DNA of 32,000 bases, from NCBI GenBank assembly GCA_020631395.1, contig JAHDHI010000002.1:34100-66099 (forward strand), given 5' to 3'. Each line of letters begins with the position of its first letter. Within the stretch, counting starts at the first letter, position 1. The notes below the pieces were generated by a model that searched no databases, was not told the DNA's origin, and saw only the letters and a program-made list of their open reading frames with translations. Below are positions 185 to 32,000 of the stretch, one piece after another. Both the position numbers and the translations under genes were made by a program. The stretch comes from Bizionia sp. Lineage in GTDB: Bacteria; Bacteroidota; Bacteroidia; Flavobacteriales; Flavobacteriaceae.

Positions 185-2494
185 ATGCTTTTATTCCTAT
201 TGAAATTCAGTGCCTGCTTGTCGATATTTTTAATATTCTACAAGCTATTGCTTGAAAAAGAGTCTATTCATACCTTCAAGCGATTTTATTTGCTCGCTGC
301 TTTGCTACTATCTATCATCATTCCCTTGATCACATTTACAGAATACGTAGAGCCAGAACTGGTCTTGGGCTCATTTCAACCCCTTGTCTTTGGAATGGAT
401 GTGCCTCCTCAAGAGGTGATGCAGGAAGAACCCACAAATTATCTACCCATTGTGCTTTGGAGCATCTATGCCATGGGAGTATTGCTATTTGGGTTGAAGT
501 TCTCCTTGAATTTGTTTCAAATCGTATCGAGAATAAAGAAGAATCCAAAATACAAAAGCAACATATACACTCGTGTCTTGTTGTTGGATTCCATTGCTCC
601 CCATACTTTTTTCAATTACATCTTTTTGAATAAAAACAAATTTGAAACACGACAAATACCGAAGGAGGTCATACTACACGAAGAAACACATGCCAAGCAA
701 AAACATAGTTTGGACATTCTCCTCATAGAGTTTCTACAAATCATGTTTTGGTTTAACCCTTTGATCTACTCAAGCAAGAAAGCCATCAGGTTAAATCATG
801 AATTTTTGGCTGACGAAGCCGTTTTAAACCAAGGAACAGACTCCTCTACATATCAACAAATTCTTTTGGCGTTCTCATCAAACGCATCACAAACGGCATT
901 GGCAAATGCCATAAACTATTCATTAATCAAAAAACGATTTACAATTATGAAATCAAAATCATCAAAAAAAGCCATTTGGCTGAGAAGCCTATTGCTTCTT
1001 CCCCTTTTGGGAGGATTACTCTTCAGCTTTAGCAACACCAAAGAAGTAGAAAAGGTAACAGAACCTTTAATGGAAACTTCCACCTTACAACGAACACCTT
1101 CCAAAGGAGTTACAGAATCCTTGATGAACGAGTACCGGGCATTTATGGAAGAATACAAGACGAAGAATAGAATAAATGGCGGTAAATACAAGAGAATTGT
1201 CGCTATCTATAACTTGATGTCCGACTCACAAAAGGCTTCTGTCGATAAATATCCCAAGGTTCCTGGATTGAACCTAAATGAGGTGAAGGCAAAAAAACCA
1301 ACGAAAAATCAGTATGAATCATGGAAGGACGCAAGCACATACGCCATTTGGATAGATGGAAAAAATGTCGACAACAAAGAGTTGAACAACTACTCATTCA
1401 CTGATATCGTTCATTTTATAGGTAGTTTTGTACATCTAAATGCTAGAAGCGACAAATTCTCCCAACCTTATCAATTTCGTCTTTACACAGAAAAAGGCTT
1501 TGAAAACACCTATCGCAAAGTCAAGACCAAATCCGCAATGGATGAAGTCAAAGAAGAGCTTGAACTAGCAAATTCCATTGGAGGCAATGATACCGAATAT
1601 AGGAAGACAATTCCTGTCGTTAATGGGATCAAATGTGATGACTGTACTTTGTTCTTATCCAAAAAAGGAATAGAAGGACTCATTCTTTCGACAACTACAG
1701 GAAATGCTGTCACCAAATTTAAAATTAAGTTCCCTGGCAAACCTACTGAAAGCATTACTGGAAACACATTAATCGGTAACGAAAAAGTAAGAAGGAATCT
1801 AGAAAGTGCTGCAATTGGTCAAAACATACAACTTTTCATGATCAAGACAAAAGATGAAACATTGACTCCTGTAATGATTGAACTCGTGGACAAAAACAAT
1901 AAAAAGCATTCCAATTCCCCAAAAGTCGTGAAAGGGGATTCATCAAGCTTACCACCTCCTCCACCGCCACCAAGTGCACCAAAACCAAATAGCCCAGCTA
2001 CTTTTGAAGAATACATCAAAACAATGGGGAAGAATGGAGATGTCATTTATTATGAAGGTAAAAAAATAACTGCCAAACAAGCAATAACACTATACAAAAA
2101 GTATGGGAAACTGGATATGCTTACCCAAAAGATAGCTGGTGGAAAATACATTGTTAAACTTTCTCAATCGAAAGGAACTACATCAACGGTAAAAAACGTG
2201 GATTTTTCAAAAAATCCGCCGCCTCCACCTCCGCCAGCACCGATTGCAAAGGTCGTAAAAGGAAAAAAATCTGATTTACCGCCACCACCACCGCCACCAA
2301 AGCCTCCTTTGGACTACGTTATCGACATGGCAAAAAAAGGGGCAACGTTCATTTACAATGGTAAAAAAATAACGTCGGACAAAGCAATCGAATTGCTCAA
2401 GAACAATAGAAAGCTGAACATCTCCTCTAAAACCAACAAAGGAAAAACCACGATCGAAATATCCAAAACCCCCATTACCATAAAAGGCAAATAA
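185..2494 (+). CDS. M56-family (BlaR1/MecR1-like) membrane metalloprotease signal transducer with atypical proline-rich repeat C-terminus
   Basis: 769-aa ORF starting at ATG 185. An N-terminal multi-pass membrane region is followed by HEETHAKQKH (HExxH zinc site) and NHEFLADEAV, the signature motifs of peptidase family M56. No penicillin-binding sensor domain is recognisable. The C-terminal half carries three Pro7 tracts (1952-1972, 2216-2236, 2279-2299) and a duplicated module (about 1922-2175 and 2249-2491). Confidence 0.85.
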   Translation: MLLFLLKFSACLSIFLIFYKLLLEKESIHTFKRFYLLAALLLSIIIPLITFTEYVEPELVLGSFQPLVFGMDVPPQEVMQEEPTNYLPIVLWSIYAMGVLLFGLKFSLNLFQIVSRIKKNPKYKSNIYTRVLLLDSIAPHTFFNYIFLNKNKFETRQIPKEVILHEETHAKQKHSLDILLIEFLQIMFWFNPLIYSSKKAIRLNHEFLADEAVLNQGTDSSTYQQILLAFSSNASQTALANAINYSLIKKRFTIMKSKSSKKAIWLRSLLLLPLLGGLLFSFSNTKEVEKVTEPLMETSTLQRTPSKGVTESLMNEYRAFMEEYKTKNRINGGKYKRIVAIYNLMSDSQKASVDKYPKVPGLNLNEVKAKKPTKNQYESWKDASTYAIWIDGKNVDNKELNNYSFTDIVHFIGSFVHLNARSDKFSQPYQFRLYTEKGFENTYRKVKTKSAMDEVKEELELANSIGGNDTEYRKTIPVVNGIKCDDCTLFLSKKGIEGLILSTTTGNAVTKFKIKFPGKPTESITGNTLIGNEKVRRNLESAAIGQNIQLFMIKTKDETLTPVMIELVDKNNKKHSNSPKVVKGDSSSLPPPPPPPSAPKPNSPATFEEYIKTMGKNGDVIYYEGKKITAKQAITLYKKYGKLDMLTQKIAGGKYIVKLSQSKGTTSTVKNVDFSKNPPPPPPPAPIAKVVKGKKSDLPPPPPPPKPPLDYVIDMAKKGATFIYNGKKITSDKAIELLKNNRKLNISSKTNKGKTTIEISKTPITIKGK

Positions 2495-2574
2495 CACTTT
2501 TGTAAAGACAAGCGTAGACATTTATCGTAAGAAATAAGTCAACAATTAGTCGTATTGCTAATTCAAACATGAAG

Positions 2575-2600
2575 AAAGCCTCGAAAATTCGAGGCTTTTT
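2575..2600 (+). terminator. Rho-independent terminator downstream of the M56 gene
   Basis: GCCTCG (2578-2583) pairs with CGAGGC (2590-2595), and the complementarity extends to AAAGCCTCGAA/TTCGAGGCTTT. A T5 run follows at 2596-2600. The hairpin lies about 80 nt after the stop at 2494 and before the next gene start at 2657. Confidence 0.7.
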
Positions 2601-2656
2601 ATGTAACAAATCATTAGTTTGCGCGTTCTAATACTCTATCAATCAAATTAATCGTT

Positions 2657-3757
2657 ATGCTAAAACAATTCTTTATCATCTGTTCTGGAGCAGATACCGA
2701 CATCTTAAAAGATTCTTCCATTGGTGAACAAAATAAATATGCTGGTATTGGTGCCACCGTATTCTTTACCGCATTGATGGCCTTCATTGCATCATCATAT
2801 GCTCTATATACCGTTTTCGACAATGCTTTTGCAGCTTTGGGCTTTGGCTTGGTTTGGGGCTTGCTCATATTCAATTTGGATCGCTTCATTGTTTCAACGA
2901 TCAAGAAACGCAACAACATAATCGACGAACTCATTCAAGCATCCCCACGTTTGTTGTTGGCCGTGATCATTGCTGTCGTCATTTCCAAACCATTGGAACT
3001 GAAGATTTTCGAAAAAGAAATAAATCAAGTGCTTTTAGAGCAAAAAAACGATTTGACATTGGCAAACAAGGATCAAATTGCATTGCAATACGTTCCAAAG
3101 ACAGAAGCCTTGCAACAAGGCATCGAGGCCTTGCGAAGTGAAATCGATGACAAGGAAACAGAAGTCAATGCGCTTTATGACACCTACATCAATGAAGCAG
3201 AAGGCACAGCTGGCACAAAATTGTTGGGAAAAGGACCTGTCTACAAAGAAAAGAGAGAGAAACACGATGCTGCTTTGGCCGAGTTGCAAACTCTCAAAGA
3301 AACGAACAAGTCCAAAATAGTAGCCGCCGAAACGGAAATGGTCAATCTCAAGGCAGAATACGATGCTCAAGTTTCCTCTTCTCAACCCATCATCGATGGT
3401 TTCGATGGCTTGATGGCTCGTGTAAGCGCATTGGGAACATTGCCATGGCTTCCTTCTTTTTTCATTTTTCTTTTGTTTCTAGCCATAGAGACCTCTCCAA
3501 TATTTGCCAAGCTCCTATCTCCAAAGGGTGAGTATGACTTTAAATTGGAGGATTTGGAAGGAGAAATAAAATCCTGGACAGCTCAAAAAACACATCAAAG
3601 AAGTGTGTTGCTAAATGCTGACAACGCATTGAACGACAAGGTTTATGGCGATTTATCCACAGAAGAAGAAATTTATGCCTACAAGAAGAAAATGGCAAGA
3701 GACCTCTTGAAAAAACAACAAGAGGCCTTTTACGATAGACAAACCAAAATATTATAG
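2657..3757 (+). CDS. DUF4407-like membrane protein with central coiled-coil
   Basis: 366-aa ORF starting at ATG 2657. The N-terminus (FFIICSGADTDILK..EQNKYAGIGATVFFTALMAFIASSYALYTVF and LLIFNLDRFIVST) matches my recollection of the conserved DUF4407 membrane region. The central ~170 aa are charged and heptad-like (e.g. LQTLKETNKSKIVAAETEMVNLKAEYD). A further hydrophobic segment follows (LPWLPSFFIFLLFLAIETSPIFA). Confidence 0.65.
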   Translation: MLKQFFIICSGADTDILKDSSIGEQNKYAGIGATVFFTALMAFIASSYALYTVFDNAFAALGFGLVWGLLIFNLDRFIVSTIKKRNNIIDELIQASPRLLLAVIIAVVISKPLELKIFEKEINQVLLEQKNDLTLANKDQIALQYVPKTEALQQGIEALRSEIDDKETEVNALYDTYINEAEGTAGTKLLGKGPVYKEKREKHDAALAELQTLKETNKSKIVAAETEMVNLKAEYDAQVSSSQPIIDGFDGLMARVSALGTLPWLPSFFIFLLFLAIETSPIFAKLLSPKGEYDFKLEDLEGEIKSWTAQKTHQRSVLLNADNALNDKVYGDLSTEEEIYAYKKKMARDLLKKQQEAFYDRQTKIL

Positions 3758-5065
3758 TGGGTATATTTCTATGGTTTCACCCAGCCAATCTTGTAGTTTA
3801 TCATATATTCTTTGCTGATCTGCATCGGAGAAGTGCTTGATTCTCGTTTTATGGCTTCCGCCTTCAAGCGTCATTTTCAAGGCATCTACATTTGGTTTCG
3901 GTGTAGGTGCGCAAGCTCCCCATGTGTCATAGGCACCGTTGATGTATAGTATTCTATCTCCCTTGCTTTCCACATAATCTCTCACATTCTTTATGTAATC
4001 GGGGTTGTAGGCAATGGGCACGCCTTTTGGCAAAAATCTTTTGTTGGTCGGCTCATGTACAATATTCAATAGATCTTTCACTGGTGTCGTATCAAATCCG
4101 TAATACCCCAATTCATTCATATGCTGATAAAAGGATGGCAAATATTTGTGATAGCCCTCGTCACTGTAAAAACCTACTCCCACAATTTGATTTACATATT
4201 TGAAAAGTGCTTCCGGAGTTGCTGTCTCATCTGGAATGTCTTCGCACTTTCCTCCCCATTGCCAAAACGAAAATGGGAATTCCAAAACGGCGTACTCAAA
4301 GGCTTCTTCCATCGGGACATCTGTAAATGTCATTTTGCTTTCTTTGGACACACGTTCCATTTCTGCCAAGACCGCTTCTCTGTTTTCCAGCGTCAATCTT
4401 TGAAATTTGGTAACCTTGTCCCTACATTCTGCCGTGCCTACCGAATTGATGTGCTCTTCCGTTCTCGGGTCTTCTTGCGTATTGATCAAAGGCGCAACAT
4501 ATGGCACCGCCACATCCATGTCTTCCGGATACTTGGATTTGTATATCAAAACTGTTTCCCCTCCTTTGCTAATGCCTGTAGACAACCATTTACTTTTATA
4601 CAATTTCTTTAACTTGGTTACCAGATCATGGTAATCTTCTACTGCCAAATCGTTGGTTAGGTGTTTCCATGGAAGTGGCGTTGGCCTAGAATTTCCGTAA
4701 AGTCTATATTCTACCATCACTTGATTGGATTTCAACACCTTGCTCAATTCGTACGTTCTATGTTTTGCCCCATAACCTTCGGTAACCAAAACCGTTGGCT
4801 TGGAATAGTCTGTGTGAGATAGATATATGTGGTGATCAAACGTTCCCGCATCTGGATCTTTATGATCCAATGGTTGTTTCAACACCATTTTAAAAGCTTC
4901 CGTGAAATGATCCTTGACCTCGATGGTACTAATTTCCGAGTTGGGAAAAAGTACCTTTAATTGTTCTTTAAAAGTTAGTCCTTGCAAAGGGTCTTTCTCT
5001 TCTTTACATGAAAAAAGGCAGGTAGCAGCCAAAAACAATATGAGTATTCCTTTAAATGCGTTCAT
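3752..5065 (-). CDS. Secreted lipoprotein serine peptidase, alpha/beta-hydrolase clan SC (S28 / S37 PS-10-like)
   Basis: 437-aa ORF, ATG (reverse complement of 5063-5065). Lipoprotein signal MNAFKGILILFLAATCLFSC. The N-terminal motif QPLDHKDPDAGTFDHHIYLSH..PTVLVTEGYG is like the S28/S37 QxxDHxxPxxGTF block. Nucleophile elbow GISKGG (GxSxG), with later candidate Asp (NGAYDTWG) and His (EGGSHKT) triad members. I cannot decide between S28 and S37 by eye. Confidence 0.7.
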   Translation of the reverse strand: MNAFKGILILFLAATCLFSCKEEKDPLQGLTFKEQLKVLFPNSEISTIEVKDHFTEAFKMVLKQPLDHKDPDAGTFDHHIYLSHTDYSKPTVLVTEGYGAKHRTYELSKVLKSNQVMVEYRLYGNSRPTPLPWKHLTNDLAVEDYHDLVTKLKKLYKSKWLSTGISKGGETVLIYKSKYPEDMDVAVPYVAPLINTQEDPRTEEHINSVGTAECRDKVTKFQRLTLENREAVLAEMERVSKESKMTFTDVPMEEAFEYAVLEFPFSFWQWGGKCEDIPDETATPEALFKYVNQIVGVGFYSDEGYHKYLPSFYQHMNELGYYGFDTTPVKDLLNIVHEPTNKRFLPKGVPIAYNPDYIKNVRDYVESKGDRILYINGAYDTWGACAPTPKPNVDALKMTLEGGSHKTRIKHFSDADQQRIYDKLQDWLGETIEIYPL

Positions 5066-5279
5066 CGATTTATTTTTTATTAAGGGTATTATTAATTCGT
5101 TAAAGATAGCCTTTCACAAAAAAGTCATATTGTATTATATTATCCATAATTGATATTATTTTAGTTTAAACACAGTAATATTGAAGCAGAAACAAGATTC
5201 AAATGCTTATACATTATCGTTGGATGCAACTCTTTTCCTTAATTTTCATATCTTTATCATTAATCGAAAAACTCCTCTG

Positions 5280-5876
5280 ATGAAAATGATGAAATCCCTC
5301 GTATGGTTATTGCTCATTACGACTTCAATAGCCTGCAAAGAAAAAAAAGACAAGGATTTCACAACTATGGACGAGCCATCATTGATTGAAGAACCCAAGG
5401 AAAGTGCCAGTGCCAGTTCTATGGTTTTGAAAGAAGATGCCTTAAATGATTTTCGACTAAAAAAAGCCATGATACTGGAAGCCCCCATATTGACAAAGCA
5501 TTTCCCCAATGCTGAAATAAAAAAGGAGATTGGGCAACAGGATGGTCCAGATTACGTGTATTATACGATAGACAAAGATTTGGTCTTCTCAACACCAGAT
5601 ACGAAAGGCAATGTTCTATCGCATATCACAATAAAAGGCAATTCCAAAATTTCAGATGCGTATGGCATTGCAATTGGCAATACATTGGACGACATCAAGG
5701 CTAAACGTTCCGACATTAAAATAGTGACAGATCATTTTCGCATCTATCTCCATGAGGAAGACTCCAACATTTCTTATGAAATGTCCTTGACCAATTACAA
5801 TGGACCAGACAAGGAAAACTATGCTTTCGATGACATTAAAGACTCCAAGGTAATTGCCATTCTATGGGGAAGATAG
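5280..5876 (+). CDS. Hypothetical lipoprotein
   Basis: The ORF track starts at a TTG (5181). The first in-frame ATG cluster (5280, 5286, 5289) gives MKMMKSLVWLLLITTSIACKEKK, a clean lipoprotein signal, so I place the start there. I recognise no family. Coding is supported only by ORF length, the signal peptide and ordinary composition. Confidence 0.5.
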   Translation: MKMMKSLVWLLLITTSIACKEKKDKDFTTMDEPSLIEEPKESASASSMVLKEDALNDFRLKKAMILEAPILTKHFPNAEIKKEIGQQDGPDYVYYTIDKDLVFSTPDTKGNVLSHITIKGNSKISDAYGIAIGNTLDDIKAKRSDIKIVTDHFRIYLHEEDSNISYEMSLTNYNGPDKENYAFDDIKDSKVIAILWGR

Positions 5877-6051
5877 TTTCATTTCTTCGATGCAAATACA
5901 CTAATTTTACTGATTTGAAATGCTTTTAGCATACCTTTCCCAATGAAATCGCAACACAATTAATACTATTTTATCCATATAACATACAATATTAGCCTTA
6001 ACATAGATAATATATAATTAAAGAGGTGTAAACACCTATTTTTGGAGCCAT

Positions 6052-7011
6052 ATGGATCCAATCATACAAATAGATACATCTTTTATCGAAACGCATACTT
6101 CCTTTGCAGGTTTGGTTTCAGAATTGGCCTTGGCATTTTCCTCGAAAAAGACAATTGTCCCAATGCGTCATCATCATGACTTTCCAAACCCTGAAGTAAG
6201 CACAGACTCTACTTTGTTGTTAATGCCTGCATGGAACCCCAGTGAAAGTGCCGGTGTAAAGATAGTTACTGTCAGCCCTGAAAACAATCAATTCGATTTA
6301 CCCTCGATAAATGGGACTTATATTTATTTGGATGCGACGAAAGGTACCATCAAAGCCATATTGGAAGCCAAAAGTTTGACAGCAAAACGAACTGCTGCAG
6401 CTTCTGCTCTAGCATCGTCCTTTCTCTCTAGAGAAGATTCCAATTCCCTCTTGATGATAGGAACTGGAGCATTGTCCATAAATCTGATAAAAGCACACGC
6501 TGCCGTTCGCCCAATAAAACAAGTATTTGTATGGGGACGTAACTTTGAGAAGGCTCAAGCCATTTCAAATCAATTGTCCAACGAAAAATTCACAGTGACT
6601 CCGATACGAGACATCGAAGAAAAAATTTCCAAAGTAGACATCATCTCTTCTGCTACGCTTTCCAAAACACCTTTGGTCTTAGGGAAGCATTTAAAAGAAG
6701 GGCAACACATAGATTTGGTAGGCGCTTACAAGAAAGACACAAGGGAAGCAGATGATGAAGCTGTCATAAAATCTTCGGTATTCGTAGACACCTACCAAGG
6801 TGGTTTAAAAGAAAGTGGAGACATCGTCATACCCTTGCAAAATGGCACATTGACGGTCGAAGAAATCAAAGCAGACCTATTTCAACTCTGTTCTAAAGAA
6901 AAAGTCGGAAGAACATCAGACAAAGAGATAACATTTTTTAAATCCGTTGGCCACGCCTTGGAAGATTTAACTGCTGCCAATTATTACTACAAAAAGTATT
7001 CGAATGGGTAA
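6052..7011 (+). CDS. Ornithine cyclodeaminase / mu-crystallin family NAD(P)-dependent enzyme; by context candidate delta1-pyrroline-2-carboxylate reductase
   Basis: 319-aa ORF, a typical OCD/mu-crystallin length. It contains LTAKRTAAASALAS and the Rossmann-type MIGTGALSINLIKAH motif characteristic of the family. Its 3' end overlaps the downstream proline-racemase-family gene by 8 nt (ATGGGTAA, 7004-7011). Confidence 0.75.
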   Translation: MDPIIQIDTSFIETHTSFAGLVSELALAFSSKKTIVPMRHHHDFPNPEVSTDSTLLLMPAWNPSESAGVKIVTVSPENNQFDLPSINGTYIYLDATKGTIKAILEAKSLTAKRTAAASALASSFLSREDSNSLLMIGTGALSINLIKAHAAVRPIKQVFVWGRNFEKAQAISNQLSNEKFTVTPIRDIEEKISKVDIISSATLSKTPLVLGKHLKEGQHIDLVGAYKKDTREADDEAVIKSSVFVDTYQGGLKESGDIVIPLQNGTLTVEEIKADLFQLCSKEKVGRTSDKEITFFKSVGHALEDLTAANYYYKKYSNG

Positions 7012-8047
7012 AGTCTATCAAAACATACTTTCAAAAACAGATTTTACTCCAAACGAGGATTGGCTTAAAATAAAAACCATAGACATGCATACCGGTGGAG
7101 AGCCATTGCGAGTCATAGTGGATGGTTTCCCTGAGTTGAAAGGAAATTCCGTATTGGAATACAGACATTTTTGCAGAGAAAACTTTGATTATTTACGTAC
7201 TGCCTTGATGTTTGAGCCTCGTGGGCATGCCGACATGTATGGTTGCATACTATTACCTCCAAATGACGACCAAGGCGATTTTGGAATCATCTTCTTGCAT
7301 AACGAAGGCTATTCTACGATGTGCGGTCACGCCATCATTGCCATTTCCTCCTTGGCAATAGAAATGAATTGGGTTGACGTGAAAGAAGGAGAAAACGTGA
7401 TGAAGATCGATGCGCCTTGTGGTAGGATAACCTCCTTTGCAAATGTTGAAAATGGAAACGTCACTGGAGTTCGCTTTCATTGTGTACCTAGTTTCGTTGT
7501 TGGTCTAGACAGAACCGTAACCATCGAGAGCTTAGGAAAGATAACCTATGATCTTGCATATGGCGGCGCATTCTATGCCTACGTCGACATGGCAAAAAAC
7601 AATTTCGATTTCGACTTGAGTTCCAATTCATATAGAGCTTTGATAAATAAGGGAATGGCCATTAAAAACGCAGTAATGAAATCCGACAAAGCCATAGTGC
7701 ATCCCTTTATAGATGATTTGAGCTTCCTGTACGGAACCATATTCATCGACAACGACAAACAACCTTCCGGCAACGATAGCCGCAACGTCTGCATCTTTGC
7801 AGAAGGTGAAGTGGATCGCTGCCCTACCGGTTCTGGAGTATCAGGAAGGGTGGCCATCAACAAGGCGAGAAAGGAAATCACCTATGGTGAGACCATGAGC
7901 ATCGAAAGCATTACGGTTTCGGAAGAAGATTACGGCCCTTTCACGGCGGTAATCCCCCAAGTGGAAGGAACAGCACATATTACTGGAAAGCAAACTTTTG
8001 TAATCGATCCCAATGATCCCATGAAAGATGGATTCATATTAAGATAA
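7004..8047 (+). CDS. Proline racemase-family enzyme with Cys/Thr catalytic pair: predicted trans-3-hydroxy-L-proline dehydratase
   Basis: 347-aa ORF. The first catalytic motif YSTMCGHA has Cys107 (codon 7322-7324). The second motif DRCPTGSGVSGRVA has Thr275 (codon 7826-7828) where racemases and epimerases carry the second Cys (DRSPCGTGTS). A Cys/Thr pair is the established signature of trans-3-hydroxy-L-proline dehydratases (human L3HYPDH, bacterial LhpH type). Confidence 0.8.
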   Translation: MGKVYQNILSKTDFTPNEDWLKIKTIDMHTGGEPLRVIVDGFPELKGNSVLEYRHFCRENFDYLRTALMFEPRGHADMYGCILLPPNDDQGDFGIIFLHNEGYSTMCGHAIIAISSLAIEMNWVDVKEGENVMKIDAPCGRITSFANVENGNVTGVRFHCVPSFVVGLDRTVTIESLGKITYDLAYGGAFYAYVDMAKNNFDFDLSSNSYRALINKGMAIKNAVMKSDKAIVHPFIDDLSFLYGTIFIDNDKQPSGNDSRNVCIFAEGEVDRCPTGSGVSGRVAINKARKEITYGETMSIESITVSEEDYGPFTAVIPQVEGTAHITGKQTFVIDPNDPMKDGFILR

Positions 8048-8093
8048 CACATCAATAGCTAACGTAGAACCCCTAAGAACGTTTAGATGAGTC

Positions 8094-8126
8094 AAAGACA
8101 CACTGTTTCGAACAGTGTGTCTTTTT
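8094..8126. terminator. Bidirectional intrinsic terminator shared by convergent genes
   Basis: Perfect 14-bp stem AAAGACACACTGTT (8094-8107) / AACAGTGTGTCTTT (8111-8124) with a 3-nt loop. T-run 8122-8126 on the plus strand and a short A/T run on the other side. It lies between the stop at 8047 (+) and the stop at 8141 (-). Confidence 0.75.
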
Positions 8127-8140
8127 AATTTGATGCCTAT

Positions 8141-9322
8141 TTAGATTTTGGACAATCCCAAATCCAAATCTTCAATTAAATCTTCTGCAGACTCCAGCCC
8201 TATGGATATTCTCATATCTCCCAAGCTAATTCCCATTCCTTCGAATTGCTCTTTGCTCAACTCTTTCAAGTAGCTGATCGCTGGTGCATAGATCAAACTT
8301 TCATGACCTCCCCAACTAACACCTATTTGAAATAAACTCAATCCATTGAAAAATGTCTTTATCTTATCCAGATCGTCTGTTTTCAATTGAAAACTCATCA
8401 AGCCACTATAACCAGTCATTTGTTTCTTTCCCAATTCGTATTGAGGAAAACTCTCCAATCCCGGATAATTGATCTTTGCTATTTTTGGGTGTTTTTCCAG
8501 AAAACGCGCCACGGTCAATGCACTTTTTTGATGCTGATCCATCCTTATCTTCAAGGTTCTTAGACTTCGCAACAACAACCATGCTTCAAAAGGCGCTATC
8601 TTTGCACCAAACAATTCAAACTCTTTCGTGAATAGGTCATTTATGTCTTTTTCTCCACCTATTACGACACCGGCAACGACATCGCTATGCCCTCCAATGT
8701 ACTTTGAGCAAGAATGTATTTCCAAATCTATCCCTAGACTCAATGGTTTTTGAAAGACAGGAGATGCCCAAGTATTGTCTATGATCGTTTTTATTCCTTT
8801 GGCCTTGGCAAGTTTGGCCACCGCTTCCAAATCCTGCAAGCTTAAAACGACCGAAGATGGACTTTCCAAATAGATCAAAGATGTATTGGGTTGAATGGCC
8901 TCTTTGAATTCATTGATGTCCGTTCCCGTAATGTAGGTGACCTCTATTCCGAACTTGGGCTTGAAATACTTTTGCAACAAACTATTGGCAGGACCATATA
9001 TGTTCTTTACAGTAACGATGTGATCTCCCTTCTTTATGCATGAAAGTATGGAAGCACTAATTGCTGCCATTCCAGATCCAAACAACTTTGCGCTCTCTCC
9101 TCGGGAAATCTTGGCTAGTTTTTCCTCTACGACCCTTACTGATGGATTGTTCCCTCTCGTGTATATGTAGTTGTTTACCCTATCGTCAAAGGTCTTGTCG
9201 ACATCATCCCAATCCTTCATTGTAAACAAGGAATTCTGATATATCGGTGGCACCACTGCTCCTTTGCTATGGGCTTTTTTACCATCGTGAGACAACAACG
9301 TCTCTATATTTGTTTTTTTCAT
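8141..9322 (-). CDS. Cys/Met-metabolism PLP-dependent enzyme (cystathionine beta-lyase / gamma-synthase / methionine gamma-lyase family)
   Basis: 393-aa ORF. It carries YTRGNNPS, GMAAI and the PLP-lysine motif HSCSKYIGGHSDVVAG (S-x-x-K-Y-x-GGHSD) typical of the trans-sulfuration enzyme family. Its start codon overlaps the upstream NhaC-family stop (ATGA, 9319-9322). Confidence 0.85.
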   Translation of the reverse strand: MKKTNIETLLSHDGKKAHSKGAVVPPIYQNSLFTMKDWDDVDKTFDDRVNNYIYTRGNNPSVRVVEEKLAKISRGESAKLFGSGMAAISASILSCIKKGDHIVTVKNIYGPANSLLQKYFKPKFGIEVTYITGTDINEFKEAIQPNTSLIYLESPSSVVLSLQDLEAVAKLAKAKGIKTIIDNTWASPVFQKPLSLGIDLEIHSCSKYIGGHSDVVAGVVIGGEKDINDLFTKEFELFGAKIAPFEAWLLLRSLRTLKIRMDQHQKSALTVARFLEKHPKIAKINYPGLESFPQYELGKKQMTGYSGLMSFQLKTDDLDKIKTFFNGLSLFQIGVSWGGHESLIYAPAISYLKELSKEQFEGMGISLGDMRISIGLESAEDLIEDLDLGLSKI

Positions 9323-10785
9323 TTAAATAGAATGTGTTTATAATCATTTTTTTTGTCCTTCTTCTTGTAAAAACATCCAATGCCTGTAAGTGCAAGAATT
9401 GGAGCTACAAAAACATTTAAAATAGACAGCAATTGCCAATGCCAATAATCTGCAAAAGTCACTCCCAAAGTCGATACCACAAACAAAGTCGATGCCGTCC
9501 ATGGTATCAGCGTCTCTATCATGGTTCCATAATCCTCTATTGATCTAGACAGGACCTTCCTTGGGACTTTCAAACGATCGTATGCCGATTTGAATGCGTC
9601 TCCTATGATGAAACTGGTTGCACTTTGATTGGAAGTGAATGCATTCGTAAATGCCGTTGCCACCAAAGAAGAAATTATCAATGCCCATTTTTTCTTGACA
9701 CCTTTGAAAACGATGTTGACCAACGTAGGCATTGCCTTTACCATATCCAATATCCCTATGAAGATGAACACCATGAATGTGAAGAAGATTGCCTCGTTAA
9801 GCGCATACAGTCCACCTCTATTGAAAAGAGTTTGCACGTTGTCTGGCACTGCAGTTGTCCAAGTCGCCATATTGACATCATACCCCTTCAAGAGGGTTTG
9901 CAATAGATTTTCCAATGAATAGTTCTGAAAAACCAAAGCCAAGACACAGGCAGACAATGCTGACAAAAGCATTACCGGTACTGTCGGTTTTCTTTTTAAC
10001 GAGCCATACAATACGATTGCCGGAGGAACTATCAACAAGACATTGAAATTAAACAAGGCCTTTATTGCCGCCAAAGTAGTTTGTGAAGCCATCTCATTAT
10101 TCACTTCAGCTGATGCAGGATAGACAAAAGACAAGCTGAAAAATACCACGGCAGAAATCAAGGCAGAAGGAAAGGTCGTATACATCATGGAATGGATGTG
10201 ATCATAGAGCTTTACACCTGTGGCTGCCGAAGCCAGATTTGTCGTGTCGGAAAGTGGAGACATCTTGTCCCCAAAATAGGCTCCGCCAACTATTGCTCCC
10301 GCAGTAATTCCCAAATCCACTCCTGCTATGGATGCTATCCCTATGATGACAACTCCAATCGTCCCTATGGATCCCCATGAGGTCCCCGTCAACATTGAAA
10401 AGATTATAGGCACAACAAAGGCAATGATATACATGTAATCTGGACTTATCACCTTTATGCCATAATAGACCAACATGGGAATCGTACCAGAGATAATCCA
10501 TGAGCCTATAAGTACACCTATGGAAAAGAAAATGAGAATTATAGGAAATCCCTTGGCTATCTTTTTTACGATTGCATCCTGGATCTTATTCCACTCATAC
10601 CCCAAAATCATTAATTCTATGGCAGAAAACACTGCCGATAGCAAAAAGATGATTTCCAAAGGAAATGGTTTCAAATCAAAATAGGTAGGTCCTATGACCA
10701 ATCCGAAGGTTATGAGGATGAATAAAAAGACTATTGGAAGTAGCAAATGGTGAAGCTTTAGACTGGATCGTTTCAAAGGGGTCAA
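9319..10785 (-). CDS. NhaC-family membrane transporter (Na+/H+ antiporter superfamily; substrate not assignable)
   Basis: 488-aa polytopic membrane ORF with the NhaC-like block MLTGTSWGSIGTIGVVIIGIA and GAYFGDKMSPLSDTTNL. The track start is a TTG (reverse complement of 10783-10785). The first in-frame ATG would remove about 58 aa of conserved-looking N-terminus, so a non-ATG start is likely. Only 17 nt separate it from the FGE stop. Confidence 0.85.
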   Translation of the reverse strand: MTPLKRSSLKLHHLLLPIVFLFILITFGLVIGPTYFDLKPFPLEIIFLLSAVFSAIELMILGYEWNKIQDAIVKKIAKGFPIILIFFSIGVLIGSWIISGTIPMLVYYGIKVISPDYMYIIAFVVPIIFSMLTGTSWGSIGTIGVVIIGIASIAGVDLGITAGAIVGGAYFGDKMSPLSDTTNLASAATGVKLYDHIHSMMYTTFPSALISAVVFFSLSFVYPASAEVNNEMASQTTLAAIKALFNFNVLLIVPPAIVLYGSLKRKPTVPVMLLSALSACVLALVFQNYSLENLLQTLLKGYDVNMATWTTAVPDNVQTLFNRGGLYALNEAIFFTFMVFIFIGILDMVKAMPTLVNIVFKGVKKKWALIISSLVATAFTNAFTSNQSATSFIIGDAFKSAYDRLKVPRKVLSRSIEDYGTMIETLIPWTASTLFVVSTLGVTFADYWHWQLLSILNVFVAPILALTGIGCFYKKKDKKNDYKHILFK

Positions 10786-17586: not shown

Positions 17587-18582
17587 ATGAATTTTATGAT
17601 TAAAGAAAATACTGGTATCCCGAAATACAAGCAAATTATCAAATCCATAGAAGAGTCCATCCTCAACGGAGTCTATAAAAGGGGTGATAAATTGCCTTCG
17701 ATTAACAGTATTAAGTTTAGATTTTCCTTGTCTAGAGACACCGTTCTACTTGCTTATAACGATCTCAAGACAAGAGGCATCATACAATCCGTACCTGGCA
17801 AAGGGTATTATGTAAAGACGGAAAACGTAGATACTCAGCAAAAGATATTCCTCCTTTTCGACGAGTTGAATGGATTTAAAGAAGAACTCTTCAATTCGTT
17901 CATAGAAAATCTTGGAGACAACATCGAGGTCGATATTTTCTTCCATCACTTCAATCACAATGTATTCAATAAACTCATATATGACAACATAGGCATATAC
18001 AACACCTATGTCATCATGCCTGCCAATTTGAAGGAAACCAATATTTTCCTAGAAAGATTGCCAACCGACAGGGTTTACATTCTTGATCAAATGCATCAAG
18101 AACTATCCAAATACCCCTCCATATTCCAAAACTTTGAAAAGGATATTTTCAGCGCATTGTCGAACGGATTGGAATTGCTAAGGAAGTATAAAAAATTGAT
18201 TCTACTCTTTCAAAAGGACATAGAGCCTACAGGAATGCTCCATGGTTTTGAAAAATTTTGTATGAAAAACGATTTTGAATACGAAGTAATAGATACGATC
18301 GGAGATAGAATACCTGAAAAGGGAGAAGTCTACTTAATCCCAGATGACAGAAATCTAATTCGGGTGATTAAGAAAATCAAAGAACTCGATTTGATTCTTT
18401 CCAAAGATCTTGGCATCATCTCATATAACGACACATTGCTAAAAGAAATTGTAGAGGATGGCATTACCACCATATCCACGGATTTCAAGGCAATGGGAAA
18501 ACGTTTGGCCGAAATGATCATCAACAAAGAGTTTGCACAAATAGAAAACCCCAACAATTTAATCATACGAAAATCCCTCTAA
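17587..18582 (+). CDS. GntR-family transcriptional regulator with C-terminal sugar-binding (LacI/PBP1-like) domain
   Basis: 331-aa ORF. The N-terminal winged-HTH IPKYKQIIKSIEESILNGVYKRGDKLPSINSIKFRFSLSRDTVLLAYNDLKTRGIIQSVPGKGYYV is classic GntR. The remaining ~250 aa have the alternating beta-alpha pattern of periplasmic-binding-protein-type effector domains. It is the first gene of the plus-strand operon, 4 nt before the next gene. Confidence 0.85.
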   Translation: MNFMIKENTGIPKYKQIIKSIEESILNGVYKRGDKLPSINSIKFRFSLSRDTVLLAYNDLKTRGIIQSVPGKGYYVKTENVDTQQKIFLLFDELNGFKEELFNSFIENLGDNIEVDIFFHHFNHNVFNKLIYDNIGIYNTYVIMPANLKETNIFLERLPTDRVYILDQMHQELSKYPSIFQNFEKDIFSALSNGLELLRKYKKLILLFQKDIEPTGMLHGFEKFCMKNDFEYEVIDTIGDRIPEKGEVYLIPDDRNLIRVIKKIKELDLILSKDLGIISYNDTLLKEIVEDGITTISTDFKAMGKRLAEMIINKEFAQIENPNNLIIRKSL

Positions 18583-18586
18583 AGCC

Positions 18587-19487
18587 ATGTTACTTTTTGA
18601 CATAGAATCCATTGAAGACAAAAACAACGCATTAGGTTATTTAAAGCTACAAAGCCCCAATAAGAGATCACATGCAAAAATTGCTCTTAATTTAGGAGCC
18701 AGTTTGCAAGAGCTATACATAAACGACAAATCCATAATTGAAACAGGCGACATGGACTATGGAAGCAGCTATGCCTCATCGGTTCTATTCCCTTTTGTCA
18801 ACAGGGTGAAAGAAGGCAAATACACTTTCGACGAAAACGAATATCTTTTGGAAACAAATGCGAAAGAAGAAAAGAATGCTCTTCATGGCTTGATTTACGA
18901 CAAGACCTTCAAGGTAATCACAAAAGAAATCACAAAAGATCGAGCTTCTGCCACATTGGAATACAAAGAAACGCGTAAACCCAAAGGGTTTCCTTTCAAT
19001 TACTCCATTGCACTCAAATACACTTTGACCAATACAGATTTAAAACTGAAAGTATCCGTAAAGAACATAGATACCAAACCCTTCCCTTTCAATATAGGTT
19101 GGCATCCTTATTTTTCGAGTAGCGATCTATACAACAGTTTCATCGGGATTGAGAGCAGTAAGAAATTCGTAGTGGATGAGGCCATGATCCCTATAAAAAC
19201 TGAGGACATATCACTCGATCAATTTCTTCAAATAAAAGATAGCTCCTTTGATGATTGCTTTATTCTGAATAAAAACAATGTAAATTTCAAAACACCAGAT
19301 TACGAAATAGAACTCAGTACTTCCTATGAGGAAAACTACCTACAGATATATACCCCAAAAAACAGAAAACACATAGCCATAGAACCAACCACCGCTCCTG
19401 CCGATAGTTTTAACAATAGTTACGGATTACAAGTTTTAAAACCTGAAGATACACACAAGATAAGTTGGATGATTAACCTGAAAAGCT

Positions 19488-19504
<17 letters not shown>
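18587..19504 (+). CDS. Aldose 1-epimerase (galactose mutarotase-like) family protein, cytoplasmic
   Basis: 305-aa ORF with no signal peptide. It has NALHGLIY and FNIGWHPYF, the conserved His-containing motifs of the aldose-epimerase fold. Its 3' end overlaps the next gene by 17 nt. Confidence 0.8.
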
Positions 19505-24810
<5,306 letters not shown>

Positions 24811-24817
24811 AATAGCA

Positions 24818-25810
24818 ATGAGCTACACAAATTTACAAATCACCATACAACAAGCCGAAAGCATCCTTTGGGATCTTTTCAACATTAGGGGCACGGCCTC
24901 AACTCTTCCAGGTGAAGTGGATTTCAACTTTAGGATAAAGATAGAAGATGAAGATGGTTACATCTTAAAGATATCACGCCCGGATGAAGATGAAACGTAT
25001 CTGGATTTTCAGCAAAAACTCTTACAGTTCGTAGAAGGTAGCAAAGCCAACATTACGGCCCCAAAGGTGATAAGAGATAAAAAGGGAAACTCCATTTCAG
25101 AAATCACCGATGATTTTGGCAATCAAAGAAAAGTGCGCTTGCTCTCTTGGATTTCAGGAAGAGTTTGGAGTGACGTGAACCCTCAATTGGATGATTTACG
25201 CTTTAGCTTGGGAGAACAATGTGGTTTGTTAACTAAAGCCCTACAAGGGTTCGACCATTCTGAAGGCCATCGAGAGTTTGAATGGGACGTATCACAATCA
25301 CTTTGGACTACAAGTCATCTCGACTTGTTCTCTTCGAATGAAAAAAAGATACTTTCCTCCTTTCAAAAACAATTTGAAGCTTCACAAAACGAGTATTCGA
25401 AATTAAGAAAGGCAATAGTTCACAATGATGCCAACGACAACAATGTCATTGTTTCCAATGACCTTTTAGCTCCCACCGTAAAAGCTGCAATAGACTATGG
25501 AGATGCCATCCATACCCAAATAATAAACGACCTTGCCATTAGCTGTGCATATTGCATAATGCATCATAACGATCCATTGGAAGCGTCCCTGCCAATTGTA
25601 AAAGGCTATCACTCCTCTTTTCCCTTACGGGAGGAAGAATTGACTCATTTGTACATTGCCATCGCCATGCGATTGGTCATCTCCGTCACCAAATCGGCCA
25701 TAAACAAAATCAAGGAACCCGACAACGCCTATTTGTTGATAAGTGAAAAACCTGCTTGGGAGGTTCTAAAGAAATGGCATTTGATTAATCCTGACTTTGC
25801 AGAATACAGC
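24818..25810 (+). other. Domain 1 of the fusion: aminoglycoside-phosphotransferase (APH)/choline-kinase-fold kinase domain (boundaries approximate)
   Basis: Catalytic loop HNDANDNN (H-x-D-x4-N, 25421-25444) and metal-binding IDYGD (25490-25504). The upstream YILKISRP provides the nucleotide-binding Lys-type motif. The order and spacing fit the APH / homoserine-kinase-II / hydroxylysine-kinase fold. Confidence 0.75.
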
Positions 25811-27844
25811 TTTAGAGCCACCTGCGGATTTACTGCTCATCCAAAACAAGAAGCATTTGAAAATTGGGCATCGAAAGAGCTATTTCAACTTTCAGATCTA
25901 TTTCCATCCATTGCAAGGAACGAAGTCCATCATTTGGATTTAAGCGTTTCAAGCAAATGGATTGGACACCAACAAGACTTCAATGACTTGGACTTATTTC
26001 AGTTCAAGATAGATCAACTTCAAAAAACGATTCCAAACAAAATTATAGCAGGAGGCTATTTGGAGCCACGTCCCATATACACTTCGACCTCCTATGACGT
26101 GATTGGAAACAAAGGGAGAGAGAGCAGAAGCATCCATTTGGGAGTAGATTACTGGCTACCCGCCAACACGCCAGTCCATGCCTTGTTGGAAGGTGAAGTT
26201 GTCATTGCCACAAATGATGCTGGCAATAAAGAGTATGGGGGTTTGGTCGTTTTGAAACATAACATCTCCAATTTGGAATTCTATACCTTGTATGGGCATC
26301 TGTCCGTTGCTAGCGCAACAGGGCACAATCTAGGAGATACCATTGAAAAAGGAGAAAAGATTGCCGAACTTGGCTCACCTTCTGAAAACGGCAATTGGGC
26401 GCCACATCTGCATTTTCAAGTCATGCTTTCCCTTTTTGGACATACCGACGACTTTCCTGGGGTAGCTTTTTTCAATCAGATGGAACAATGGAAAAGCATT
26501 TGTCCAAATCCAAATTTATTGTTTAAATCTGAAACCCTTCAAAAGAATGACGCAATCTCCAATGAGGAATTGATAAGCTACAGAAAGCAACATTTGGGCA
26601 AGAGTTTAAGCCTACAATATAAAAATCCCATTAAAATGGTTCGTGGAGCTGGTCAATATTTGATGGACCAATACGGACAAAAGTATTTGGACACGGTAAA
26701 CAATGTAGCTCATGTTGGCCATGAACATTATGGAGTAGTAAAGGCTGGACAAGAGCAAATGGCCCTTATCAACACCAATTCTCGCTACTTGCATGAAAAC
26801 ATAAATGCCTTGGCCAAAGAACTCATAGACACCCTACCTCCAGAATTAAATGTCTTGCATTTTGTCAACTCCGGCAGTGAGGCCAATGAATTGGCCATAC
26901 GAATGGTAAAGGCCAATACTGGAGAAAGAGATATCGTAGCCAGTGAGGTGGGCTATCATGGAAATGCCAACATGTGCATTGACATAAGCTCCTACAAGTT
27001 TGACGGCAAAGGTGGACAAGGTGCTCCGGAACACACCCATATTTTCCCATTGCCAGATACTTTTAGAGGAAAATACAGAGGAAAAGACGCAGCAGACAAA
27101 TATGTCGAGGAAATACAAAGGCAAATCGACATCATTCATCAAAAAGGTCGTGGTGTTGGAGCATTCATCATAGAGCCAATAATAAGTTGTGGTGGGCAAA
27201 TAGAATTGCCTGAAGGTTTTTTACAAAAAGCATACGAAACCATTAGAAACGCAGGTGGCCTATGTATTTCAGACGAAGTACAAACGGGTTGTGGAAGAAT
27301 GGGGAGAACCTTTTGGGGCTTTCAATTGCATGAAGTGGTACCAGACATCGTAACCATAGGAAAACCATTGGGCAACGGACACCCAGTAGCAGCAGTAGCC
27401 TGCACGCAGGAAGTTGCAGATGCCTTTGCCAATGGGATGGAATACTTCAATACCTTTGGAGGCAATCCCGTTTCTTGCGCCATAGCAACAAAAGTACTTC
27501 AAACCGTAAAACGAGAGGGGCTTCAAGAAAACGCATGGAAAGTTGGCGAATACTTAAAAGCCGAGTTGAAAACATTGGCTCAAGATTTTCCAATAGTAGG
27601 TGACGTACGTGGACAAGGTTTGTTTTTGGGAATTGAATTGGTTGATGCCAACTTGAATCCGTTGGCGAATCAGACCGATTATTTGGCCAACCGAATGAAA
27701 GACCATGGCATTTTAATGAGTACCGATGGTCCAGATCACAATGTACTAAAAATCAAACCTCCCATTGTATTCACCAAAGACAATGCGGAAGAGCTATTAT
27801 TCTATTTGAAGAAAGTCCTTGCTGAGGATTTCATGAAACTTTAA
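24818..27844 (+). CDS. Tri-domain fusion protein: APH/hydroxylysine-kinase-like phosphotransferase + M23 metallopeptidase-like domain + class-III PLP enzyme of the ETNPPL/PHYKPL (amino-alcohol-phosphate phospho-lyase) type
   Basis: 1008-aa ORF with no signal peptide or TM segment. Domain motifs are listed in the three sub-features below. The C-terminal third aligns by eye over long stretches with human ETNPPL/PHYKPL as I remember them ([51 protein letters not shown]). Confidence 0.85.
26060..26440 (+). other. Domain 2 of the fusion: M23 (LytM/lysostaphin-type) domain with intact zinc ligand motifs (boundaries approximate)
   Basis: HLGVD (H-x3-D, 26135-26149) and HLHFQV (H-x-H, 26405-26413), with YTLYGHLS between them. 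This is the full M23 metal-binding signature, located internally in a protein that has no export signal. Confidence 0.7.
26560..27844 (+). other. Domain 3 of the fusion: class-III aminotransferase-fold PLP domain, ETNPPL/PHYKPL-like (boundaries approximate)
   Basis: Motifs: [23 protein letters not shown], the PLP-Asp DEVQTG (Asp819, codon 27272-27274) and the Schiff-base Lys in [11 protein letters not shown] (Lys849, codon 27362-27364). The GKP(L/M)GNGHPVA and NVLKIKPP blocks are, in my memory, diagnostic of the AGXT2L1/AGXT2L2 phospho-lyase clade rather than of true transaminases. Confidence 0.75.
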
Positions 27845-30994
<3,150 letters not shown>

Positions 30995-30997
30995 ATT

Positions 30998-32000
30998 ATG
31001 CAATTTTTAACCTTTATAGGCTTTACAATTCTCGTTGCTTTAATTTCCTATCTAAAAACAAGAAAAACAAATGAAAATACTTCTGATGGCTATTTTCTTG
31101 GAGGAAGAAGTTTGACTGCAGGAGTAATTGCCGGGTCTTTATTACTCACGAACCTATCCACAGAACAAATTGTCGGATTAAATGGATCTGCCTATGAAAG
31201 TGGTCTATCGGTGATGGTTTGGGAAACTTTGGCTGCAATTGCAATGGTGGTGACTGCTATGTTTTTACTGCCAAGATATCTAAAAGGAGGGTTAACAACG
31301 ATTCCTGAGTTTTTGGCAAAGAGGTTTGATGTTGCTACAAAGACTTGGACTTCCGTCCTATTCTTAACTGGTTACGTAGTGGTATTGTTGCCAGTCATCT
31401 TGTATTCAGGATCTTTGGCAATTAGCGGCATGTTCAATATTCCCGAATTATTGGGCATTACACATACACAATCCATTTGGCTTTGTGTTTGGGGCATTGG
31501 CATAGTTGGTTCCATATATGCCGTTTTTGGAGGCCTTAAGGCAGTTGCCATATCCGACTCCATCAATGCAATAGGCTTGTTGATTGGTGGAATATTGATT
31601 CCTGTCTTTGGGTTGTTATTGATAGGAGATGGAAGCATTATTGATGGGCTTTCCGTCTTGACTACCGAAAACCCCGAAAAGTTCAAATCTATGGGAGGCC
31701 CAACAGACCCTGTTCCTTTTTACACCATCTTCACGGGAATGATGCTCGTGCAATTGTTTTATTGGGGAACTAATCAACAAATCATACAAAGAGCATTAGG
31801 AGCAAAAGACTTAAAAGAAGGGCAAAAAGGGTTGCTATTGGCTTCTTTCATAAAAATTCTAGGTCCCATAATTGTGGTGTTACCAGGATTAATTGCCTTT
31901 CATGTGTTTGATGGAAGTTTAGAGGCTTCGGATAAAGCCTATCCTATGTTAGTAAACAAAGTTCTACCGAAAGCTTGGATTGGTTTCTTTGCTGCAGTAC
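30998..32000 (+). CDS. Sodium:solute symporter (SSS/SGLT family), 3' end cut by window edge
   Basis: This gene is not in the ORF track because no stop is reached. ATG at 30998, 3 nt after the GH2 stop, is open to the window end. The translation MQFLTFIGFTILVALISYLKTRKTNENTSDGYFLGGRSLTAGVIAGSLLLTNLSTEQIVGLNGSAYESGLSVMVWE..LPRYLKGGLTTIPEFLAKRFD is the canonical SSS-family N-terminus (DYFLGGR, TN.S.EQ..G). Confidence 0.85.
   Translation, partial: MQFLTFIGFTILVALISYLKTRKTNENTSDGYFLGGRSLTAGVIAGSLLLTNLSTEQIVGLNGSAYESGLSVMVWETLAAIAMVVTAMFLLPRYLKGGLTTIPEFLAKRFDVATKTWTSVLFLTGYVVVLLPVILYSGSLAISGMFNIPELLGITHTQSIWLCVWGIGIVGSIYAVFGGLKAVAISDSINAIGLLIGGILIPVFGLLLIGDGSIIDGLSVLTTENPEKFKSMGGPTDPVPFYTIFTGMMLVQLFYWGTNQQIIQRALGAKDLKEGQKGLLLASFIKILGPIIVVLPGLIAFHVFDGSLEASDKAYPMLVNKVLPKAWIGFFAAV

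Follow-up and report, generated by a model that had tools for sequence, protein, structure and literature searches.

In humans, 5-hydroxy-L-lysine (Hyl) is catabolised in two steps: HYKK (AGPHD1) phosphorylates the 5-hydroxyl group, after which PHYKPL (AGXT2L2), an enzyme dependent on pyridoxal 5'-phosphate (PLP), forms 2-aminoadipate semialdehyde by eliminating phosphate and ammonia. No protein is more abundant in animals than collagen. Its glycosylated hydroxylysine cannot be metabolised further by animals, and glucosyl-galactosyl-hydroxylysine is excreted by them largely unchanged. Bacterial bi- and trifunctional proteins are said to have given Veiga-da-Cunha and coworkers, in 2012, the clue for identifying human HYKK, PHYKPL and ETNPPL. 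Here, we analysed a stretch of 32,000 nucleotides from the marine bacterium Bizionia sp. (Flavobacteriaceae; GenBank assembly GCA_020631395.1, contig JAHDHI010000002.1, positions 34,100 to 66,099 of the forward strand), referred to as the window, in which one gene codes for a fusion of an APH-fold kinase, a peptidase domain of family M23 and a class-III PLP enzyme. Homology and synteny lead us to propose that this fusion is probably a rigid, cytoplasmic three-domain enzyme which catabolises 5-hydroxy-L-lysine derived from collagen-type glycoconjugates, with its M23 domain included as an accessory peptidase or bridge. HYKK and PHYKPL have folds in common with the fusion (APH kinase and class-III PLP enzyme, respectively); however, they are two separate proteins, lack an M23 domain and the human kinase uses GTP, whereas the window has one fused chain within a glycosidase operon.

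The three-domain architecture itself is already known, and the protein belongs to a widespread, biochemically uncharacterised family. It aligned with positions 7-1011 of the 1015 positions of the NCBIfam model NF004799 (PRK06148, "hypothetical protein") at 1127.2 bits, 0.8 bit short of the curated cut-off of 1128. A word-indexed homologue search gave 2216 matches with E values of 1e-10 or lower, the top 120 of which were all three-domain proteins from Flavobacteriaceae. The family was then surveyed by an exhaustive search of 50%-identity clusters, from which the top 150 representatives were retained: 128 of them had the three-domain form (about 1000 amino acids) and 10 were kinase-lyases without M23 (about 750-800 amino acids); the three-domain form accounts for at least 128 clusters at this level of identity. 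An earlier note on this DNA, made from the letters alone, had called the internal M23 domain the odd part of the protein; to regard the fusion itself as unusual or unrecognised would be an overstatement in view of these numbers. In a scan of species-representative genomes the gene was found in Bacteroidota, Chloroflexota, Desulfobacterota, Acidobacteriota, Gemmatimonadota, Planctomycetota, Actinomycetota, Alpha- and Gammaproteobacteria and, in addition, in two metagenome-assembled genomes (MAGs) of Asgard archaea. The homologues of the latter, from Promethearchaeota and Thorarchaeota (L024 and L026), are full-length three-domain proteins with 41% identity and an intact M23 site, and they could be explained by horizontal transfer or by contamination during binning. 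PMC5714238 cites Veiga-da-Cunha et al. (2012) as a comparative-genomics identification.

A Kinase, an M23 Domain and a Predicted Phospho-Lyase in One Probably Cytoplasmic Chain

The fusion gene (24818 to 27844, plus strand, as are all domains and operon genes given below) starts with ATG and codes for 1008 amino acids plus stop. A Pfam scan with hidden Markov models placed APH at residues 28-252 (E 1e-17), Peptidase_M23 at 439-536 (1.3e-16) and Aminotran_3 at 604-1001 (5.5e-78), and the size of these E values excludes chance matches. The scan thereby bears out the three domains that the earlier note had read in this single open reading frame, and the catalytic motifs listed there (HxDxxxxN, DYGD, HLGVD, HLH and the PLP blocks) were all present, intact, at the residues assigned to them. 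The note had also claimed that an export signal is missing, and this was confirmed: a hydrophobic signal region is lacking at the N-terminus, in contrast to the products of the flanking genes of glycoside hydrolase families 63 (GH63) and 2 (GH2, two genes), which carry signal peptides or lipoprotein signals. Since the upstream GH2 gene stops at 24810 and the start codon of the fusion follows only 7 nt further on, there is no room for an N-terminal extension. Export of the fusion was rejected because of the absent signal peptide, and, since an ATP-dependent kinase sits on the same chain, we infer that the protein is cytoplasmic.

The C-terminal domain (residues 601-1008; 26618 to 27841) has the residues expected of class-III PLP enzymes (PF00202), namely the Schiff-base lysine K849, located in GKPLGNG, the pyridine-N-binding aspartate D819 and, at the O3'-binding position occupied by Gln or His, Q822; these are conserved in 127-128 of the 128 three-domain representatives. 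PLP-domain blocks such as NVLKIKPP were found in the translation and belong to the family consensus. When compared with proteins of solved structure, the domain reached 444.6 bits (48% identity) with human ETNPPL (6tor) and 304.6 bits (37% identity, template modelling (TM) score 0.94) with the Arthrobacter phospholyase A1RDF1 (5g4i), versus 175 bits or less with the best other PLP enzymes (dialkylglycine decarboxylase, racemases and transaminases). In a Foldseek search with the full-length AlphaFold2 model, the lyase domain superposed on 6tor with a TM score of 0.95 and a root-mean-square deviation of 1.2 Å. Bit scores, identity and superposition thus group the domain with the ammonia-phospho-lyases of the ETNPPL/PHYKPL/A1RDF1 clade and not with transaminases, in agreement with the placement in the earlier note. 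A PbfA-type lyase was considered as well and rejected (195 bits versus a cut-off of 525).

The N-terminal domain (residues 1-340; 24818 to 25837) is a small-molecule kinase of the APH fold (PF01636), for which we propose the function of a 5-hydroxylysine kinase. The catalytic loop H202-x-D204-xxxx-N209, the metal-binding aspartate in D226-Y-G-D229 and the ATP-binding lysine of the N-lobe, K51, are all present, and K51, D204, N209, D226 and D229 were invariant in family alignments. A search of the PDB with the kinase domain as a single sequence gave no match, and a family profile was required to detect amicoumacin kinase 6sui, homoserine kinase II 2ppq and 6ef6, all at about 1e-13 (1.5e-13 for 6ef6). 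The last is presumably the mycobacterial aminopropanol kinase of an aminoacetone microcompartment. With these assignments, the logic of a kinase joined to a lyase for the degradation of an amino alcohol, already put forward for this gene, holds.

The AlphaFold2 model of the full-length fusion is compact, with a mean predicted local distance difference test (pLDDT) of 95.1 and a predicted TM score (pTM) of 0.93, and no flexible linkers are seen in it, since pLDDT stays above 80 throughout. Two connectors flank the M23 domain. The helical one that precedes it (residues 341-425; 25838 to 26092) contains the near-invariant residues G412, E416 and R418, and no separate fold match was found for it in the PDB. 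The one that follows it and leads into the N-terminal segment of the lyase (residues 546-600; 26453 to 26617) has the conserved residues P563, P565 and R589, and its pLDDT was 82-96 in the full-length model versus 64-72 when the region was modelled alone. Since the connectors lose confidence when modelled alone, they appear to pack against the other domains, and the model suggests that M23 is packed between the kinase and the lyase.

The Fusion Gene Lies in an Operon with Glycosidases

The first gene of the operon codes for a GntR-family regulator (17587 to 18582), which is also present in the same operon of a relative with 87% identity (L086). It is followed by a cytoplasmic aldose 1-epimerase (mutarotase; 18587 to 19504), a YgjK-like GH63 alpha-glucosidase with the lipoprotein signal LFTSC (19488 to 21524; Pfam MGH1-like_GH and YgjK_N) and a LacZ-type GH2 beta-galactosidase with a signal peptide (21514 to 24810). 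Downstream of the fusion are a second LacZ-type GH2 beta-galactosidase with the lipoprotein signal LAFGC (27854 to 30994; NCBIfam Bga2A, 1023.8 bits versus a cut-off of 999) and a Na+/solute symporter of the SSF family, which runs past the end of the window (30998 to 32000; Pfam SSF 7.7e-33, NCBIfam PRK10484 532.5 bits versus a cut-off of 401). In gene order, the gaps or overlaps are 5, -17, -11, 7, 9 and 3 nt. In L086, GalK and GalT come after the symporter. A scan of the operon for promoters and terminators gave sites no more numerous than in shuffled sequence.

The GH63 protein matched E. coli YgjK (3d3i) with 244.8 bits, and we propose that it could remove glucose from Glc-alpha1,2-Gal-Hyl. 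To our knowledge, the only natural compound that joins an alpha-1,2-glucoside, a beta-galactoside and an amino acid with a vicinal amino alcohol is the Glc-alpha1,2-Gal-beta-O-hydroxylysine of collagen. The context of GH63, GH2 and kinase-lyase therefore makes Glc-Gal-Hyl a coherent reading of the substrate.

Glycosidases and Amino-Acid Catabolic Genes Recur Next to the Gene in Relatives

Associations with neighbouring genes were counted by probe-based BLAST, since strict all-versus-all clustering split families and under-counted them. GH63 and/or GH2 genes beside the kinase-lyase gene recur in five phyla. The order GH63-fusion-GH2 is found in Wocania and Gelidibacter, with SusC and SusD in front, and the same arrangement is present in Flagellimonas, while Pedobacter has SusC-SusD-GH2-GH63-kinase/lyase-HglS. 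An acidobacterium also shows the association of GH63 and/or GH2 with the kinase-lyase gene, and in Phycisphaera the kinase-lyase is accompanied by a symporter and a GH63::GH2 fusion protein. In a Neomarinimicrobiota MAG only GH2 was seen, and the locus breaks off just upstream of the gene. Across phyla, the order GH63-fusion-GH2 recurs with spacers of 0-10 nt. The proposed Glc-Gal-Hyl utilisation locus combines a candidate alpha-1,2-glucosidase, a beta-galactosidase, genes for handling galactose and the putative hydroxylysine kinase-lyase. Such genes are co-operonic in the window, and the locus recurs in L086, L087, L088, L006, L058, L079 and L081; L077, which is truncated, has GH2 only.

In the Phycisphaera locus (L081, 5001-9980), a single protein of 1659 amino acids, GH63-like and GH2, is encoded directly upstream of the M23-less kinase-lyase and downstream of the SSF symporter, and the joining of GH63 and GH2 in one gene speaks for a functional link of the two. 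In the acidobacterial MAG (L058, 5696-9977), the GH2 gene that precedes the fusion is broken up into three successive open reading frames, either as a pseudogene or by a frameshift in the assembly.

Genes for the fate of the predicted product were found as well. Maribacter has an adjacent L-piperideine-6-carboxylate (P6C) dehydrogenase (805.6 bits versus a cut-off of 730), and a planctomycete has a 56%-identical aldehyde dehydrogenase directly upstream of the kinase-lyase gene. HglS, which converts 2-oxoadipate, adjoins the gene in Maribacter, Flavivirga and Pedobacter. Hydroxyproline-catabolism genes are near it at three loci (L015, L018 and L023), the window itself carries candidates of this kind, and in Tenacibaculum maritimum (L001) prolyl peptidases of families S37 and M24 (Xaa-Pro) are directly beside it. 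In L023, from a deltaproteobacterial MAG, the genes preceding the fusion (3652-9887) code for a glycyl-radical enzyme and its activase, a GntR regulator, an OCD-family reductase and a member of the proline-racemase family; they resemble an anaerobic pathway for hydroxyproline, linked here to the hydroxylysine enzyme.

The idea of collagen hydroxylysine as the source, raised in the earlier note from the protein alone, is strongly supported by the operon, with its GH63, two GH2 enzymes, mutarotase and symporter, and by the recurrent neighbours.

A Proposed Route from Glycosylated Hydroxylysine to 2-Aminoadipate

Each step of the route from Glc-Gal-Hyl to 2-aminoadipate is drawn from homology and synteny. 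Judging from the gene context, the exported GH63 and the two exported GH2 enzymes would strip Glc-alpha1,2-Gal-beta from hydroxylysine or from hydroxylysine peptides outside the cytoplasm, and the released sugars would be handled by the symporter, the mutarotase and, in the relative with 87% identity, GalK and GalT. Within the cell, the APH-fold kinase is predicted by homology and motifs to phosphorylate the 5-hydroxyl group of hydroxylysine. The PLP domain, given its 48% identity to a characterised phospho-lyase, would then eliminate phosphate and ammonia to yield 2-aminoadipate semialdehyde, which equilibrates with piperideine-6-carboxylate. The P6C dehydrogenase encoded next to the gene in relatives could convert the latter to 2-aminoadipate, from which 2-oxoadipate and, via HglS, 2-hydroxyglutarate may be formed. 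The weakest step concerns the M23 domain, which might free hydroxylysine from short collagen peptides beside the kinase site, might also bridge kinase and lyase, and is dispensable in some lineages.

The M23 Domain Has a Complete Site That Is Not Always Kept

The LytM-type M23 metallopeptidase domain (residues 426-545; 26093 to 26452) has the zinc ligands H440 and D444 (in H440-LGV-D444) and H532, together with the catalytic histidines H494 (in LYGHL) and H530 (in H530-L-H532), so that the three ligands and two catalytic histidines of Peptidase M23 (PF01551), in short HDHHH, are all present. It matched LytM 2b44 with E 2.8e-10, the family profile matched 8s3m with 2.4e-13, and the best Foldseek match was LytM 4zyb with a probability of 1.0. 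M23 proteins are, as a family, exported and act on cell-wall or extracellular peptides; the fusion departs from this, having no signal peptide and an upstream gene only 7 nt away.

The HDHHH set was intact in 105 of the 128 diverse representatives (82%) and invariant in 120-121 of 121 Flavobacteriaceae sequences, within which M23 evolves at a rate similar to that of the kinase (mean identity 71% versus 74%). In the diverse representatives, the catalytic histidines were nearly as conserved (H494 84%, H530 90%) as the metal ligands (88-94%), which argues for catalysis over a purely structural metal site. Family members from Streptomyces and Rhizobium have a degenerate site.

Alternative Explanations for the Substrate and for the M23 Domain

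Several observations weigh against hydroxylysine as the substrate. From the sequence of the lyase domain, one cannot tell whether it acts on the phosphate of hydroxylysine or on that of ethanolamine, and the only close relatives of the domain with solved structure, ETNPPL and A1RDF1, act on phosphoethanolamine. Informative neighbours were absent at about 60 of the 83 loci, no inner-membrane transporter for hydroxylysine or peptides was evident in the operon, and a biochemical study of any bacterial member was not found in the literature searched. The substrate might instead be ethanolamine, 1-amino-2-propanol, an amino sugar alcohol or some other vicinal amino alcohol, with a glycosidase setting that is coincidental or that serves another galactoside aglycone. 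This is in line with the nearest characterised lyases and with the kinase profile, which is equally close to 6ef6, and the many loci without a collagen-related neighbour indicate that other members of the family may use other amino alcohols. For the window, however, we consider it unlikely, since the tightly spaced order GH63-fusion-GH2 recurs across phyla, P6C dehydrogenase and HglS fit a C6 product expected only from hydroxylysine, and no ethanolamine-utilisation or microcompartment genes were found near the fusion. Hydroxylysine remains our preferred substrate for the enzyme of the window.

With respect to the M23 domain, the survey provides a further set of points that weigh against a peptidase as a fixed part of the pathway. 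The domain is absent from 10 of the 150 listed representatives, and in about 18 it is kept with a destroyed site (patterns such as LQNPF, RDGRQ and EENQK). On a rough neighbour-joining tree these states are scattered, which corresponds to about 8 independent losses of the domain and about 17 independent degradations of its site. Moreover, kinase-lyases without M23 are also found among GH63/GH2 genes in Pedobacter (L079) and Phycisphaera (L081), and M23 catalysis can therefore not be essential for the pathway. The domain is accessory, often intact, yet degenerated or deleted many times, and the module can do without it. Its most likely role, judged from sequence features, would be that of an accessory intracellular peptidase freeing hydroxylysine from short collagen peptides and, at the same time, a structural bridge, although a purely structural role is almost as likely. 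The trimming of Gly-X-Hyl-Gly oligopeptides, suggested in the earlier note, would be plausible for such a peptidase. The stronger claim, that M23 is an active intracellular metallopeptidase which cuts hydroxylysine from imported collagen peptides and hands it directly to kinase and lyase, seems to us doubtful. It is likewise a tentative possibility that kinase and lyase work as proposed and that M23 is no peptidase at all, being a zinc-stabilised bridge or oligomerisation module which holds the kinase in place on the PLP dimer, perhaps so that the intermediate can be handed over. Such a bridge would agree with the full-length domains that persist without a site, with the absence of flexible linkers, with the connectors that lose confidence when modelled without the other domains, and with the existence of non-catalytic, degenerate LytM factors, EnvC, NlpD, DipM and SpoIIQ being among the M23 matches. 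However, a zinc site of a purely structural kind would not need H494 and H530, which are not metal ligands and are conserved almost to the same degree, without exception in Flavobacteriaceae, and a scaffold is not required either by the representatives that lack M23. Finally, the bond hydrolysed by M23 might not be a backbone peptide bond but an isopeptide or other non-peptide amide of a hydroxylysine derivative (N-acyl or derived from a cross-link). The intact catalytic set and the location of the domain within a small-molecule pathway of the cytoplasm, which offers no peptidoglycan substrate, would be compatible with this, but it is without precedent, since all M23 matches are peptidoglycan or Gly-Gly endopeptidases or degenerate factors, and the neighbouring genes suggest no candidate substrate; we regard it as very improbable.

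If the fusion catabolises hydroxylysine as proposed, a functional name could be given to the large "hypothetical protein" family PRK06148, which extends from Bacteroidota to Asgard archaea. On the stronger claim, with an active M23 domain, the operon would represent a dedicated bacterial pathway for glucosyl-galactosyl-hydroxylysine, made up of GH63, GH2, the fusion, a second GH2, the symporter and Leloir genes; a description of such a pathway was not found in the literature searched, and nothing relevant on a fusion of M23 with a phospholyase or on bacterial degradation of Glc-Gal-Hyl was retrieved. If the hydroxylysine reading holds, the operons would show that marine and soil bacteria, including the fish-associated Tenacibaculum and Wocania, recycle glycosylated hydroxylysine. 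Should the M23 domain be active, a catabolic role in the cytoplasm would be a first for M23 enzymes, and the homologues in which M23 is intact, degenerate or absent are natural controls for the function of this domain inside a metabolic enzyme.

Other Genes in the Window

Upstream of the operon, an overlapping gene pair (6052-8047, plus strand) starts with a bifunctional pyrroline-2-carboxylate/piperideine-2-carboxylate reductase (NF004793, 375.5 bits versus a cut-off of 322). The second gene of the pair belongs to the proline-racemase family, and its best match was trans-3-hydroxy-L-proline dehydratase with 344 bits, below the cut-off of 540. The pair looks like a second pathway for a collagen amino acid, 3-hydroxyproline, in the window. 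A Peptidase_S37/S28 lipoprotein of the prolyl tripeptidyl type is encoded at 3752-5065 (minus strand), and this family is also found beside the fusion gene in L001.

Between 10803 and 17498 (minus strand) lie genes for an FGE-sulfatase maturase, a sulfatase, a GH97 enzyme and a melibiase-like protein, all with signal peptides, which probably form a unit for the degradation of sulfated glycans or alpha-galactosides next to the operon. A pair coding for a BlaR1-type Peptidase_M56 and a DUF4407 protein at the beginning of the window (185-3757, plus strand) recurs in Maribacter, where it lies downstream of the fusion gene at a distance of a few kb (L003, 15531-19600); this suggests that the 20 kb which separate the pair from the operon in the window are a lineage-specific insertion or rearrangement. 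The region 8141-10785 (minus strand) contains a PLP enzyme of Cys/Met metabolism, whose best NCBIfam match was the archaeal alanine/glutamate racemase model (487 bits, below the cut-off of 629) and which overlaps the stop codon of an NhaC-type antiporter by 4 nt. An open reading frame of 231 amino acids (5181-5876, plus strand) starts with TTG and has no Pfam match; a likely signal sequence lies further in, and the start may be mis-called.

Comparison with Known Systems

The closest solved relatives of the lyase domain are human ETNPPL and Arthrobacter A1RDF1. Both are stand-alone enzymes acting on phosphoethanolamine, whereas the context in the window points to the C6 compound phosphohydroxylysine. 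A similar logic, in which a vicinal amino alcohol is degraded first by an APH-fold kinase and then by a class-III PLP phospho-lyase, is known from the mycobacterial aminopropanol system (6ef6); however, kinase and phospho-lyase are separate proteins there, their substrate is a different one, they work within a microcompartment and no M23 domain is involved. The same three-domain layout is described by the NCBIfam models NF004799 (PRK06148) and NF004800 (PRK06149), the former of which has no functional name.

The M23 domain of the window has the fold, the HxxxD and HxH motifs and the mid-domain catalytic histidine in common with M23 enzymes of the LytM/lysostaphin type (2b44, 4zyb, 4lxc). The latter are exported peptidoglycan or Gly-Gly endopeptidases, while the M23 domain of the fusion has no signal peptide, lies between two metabolic domains and is flanked by connectors of its own. 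Among the glycosidases, the GH63 protein of the operon, whose specificity is predicted, is a homologue of E. coli YgjK, and crystal complexes of YgjK contain Glc-alpha1,2-Gal. In vertebrates, the removal of glucose from the Glc-alpha1,2-Gal-beta-Hyl of collagen is carried out by PGGHG (EC 3.2.1.107), which belongs to GH65 and thus to a glycoside hydrolase family other than that of the GH63 enzyme in the operon.

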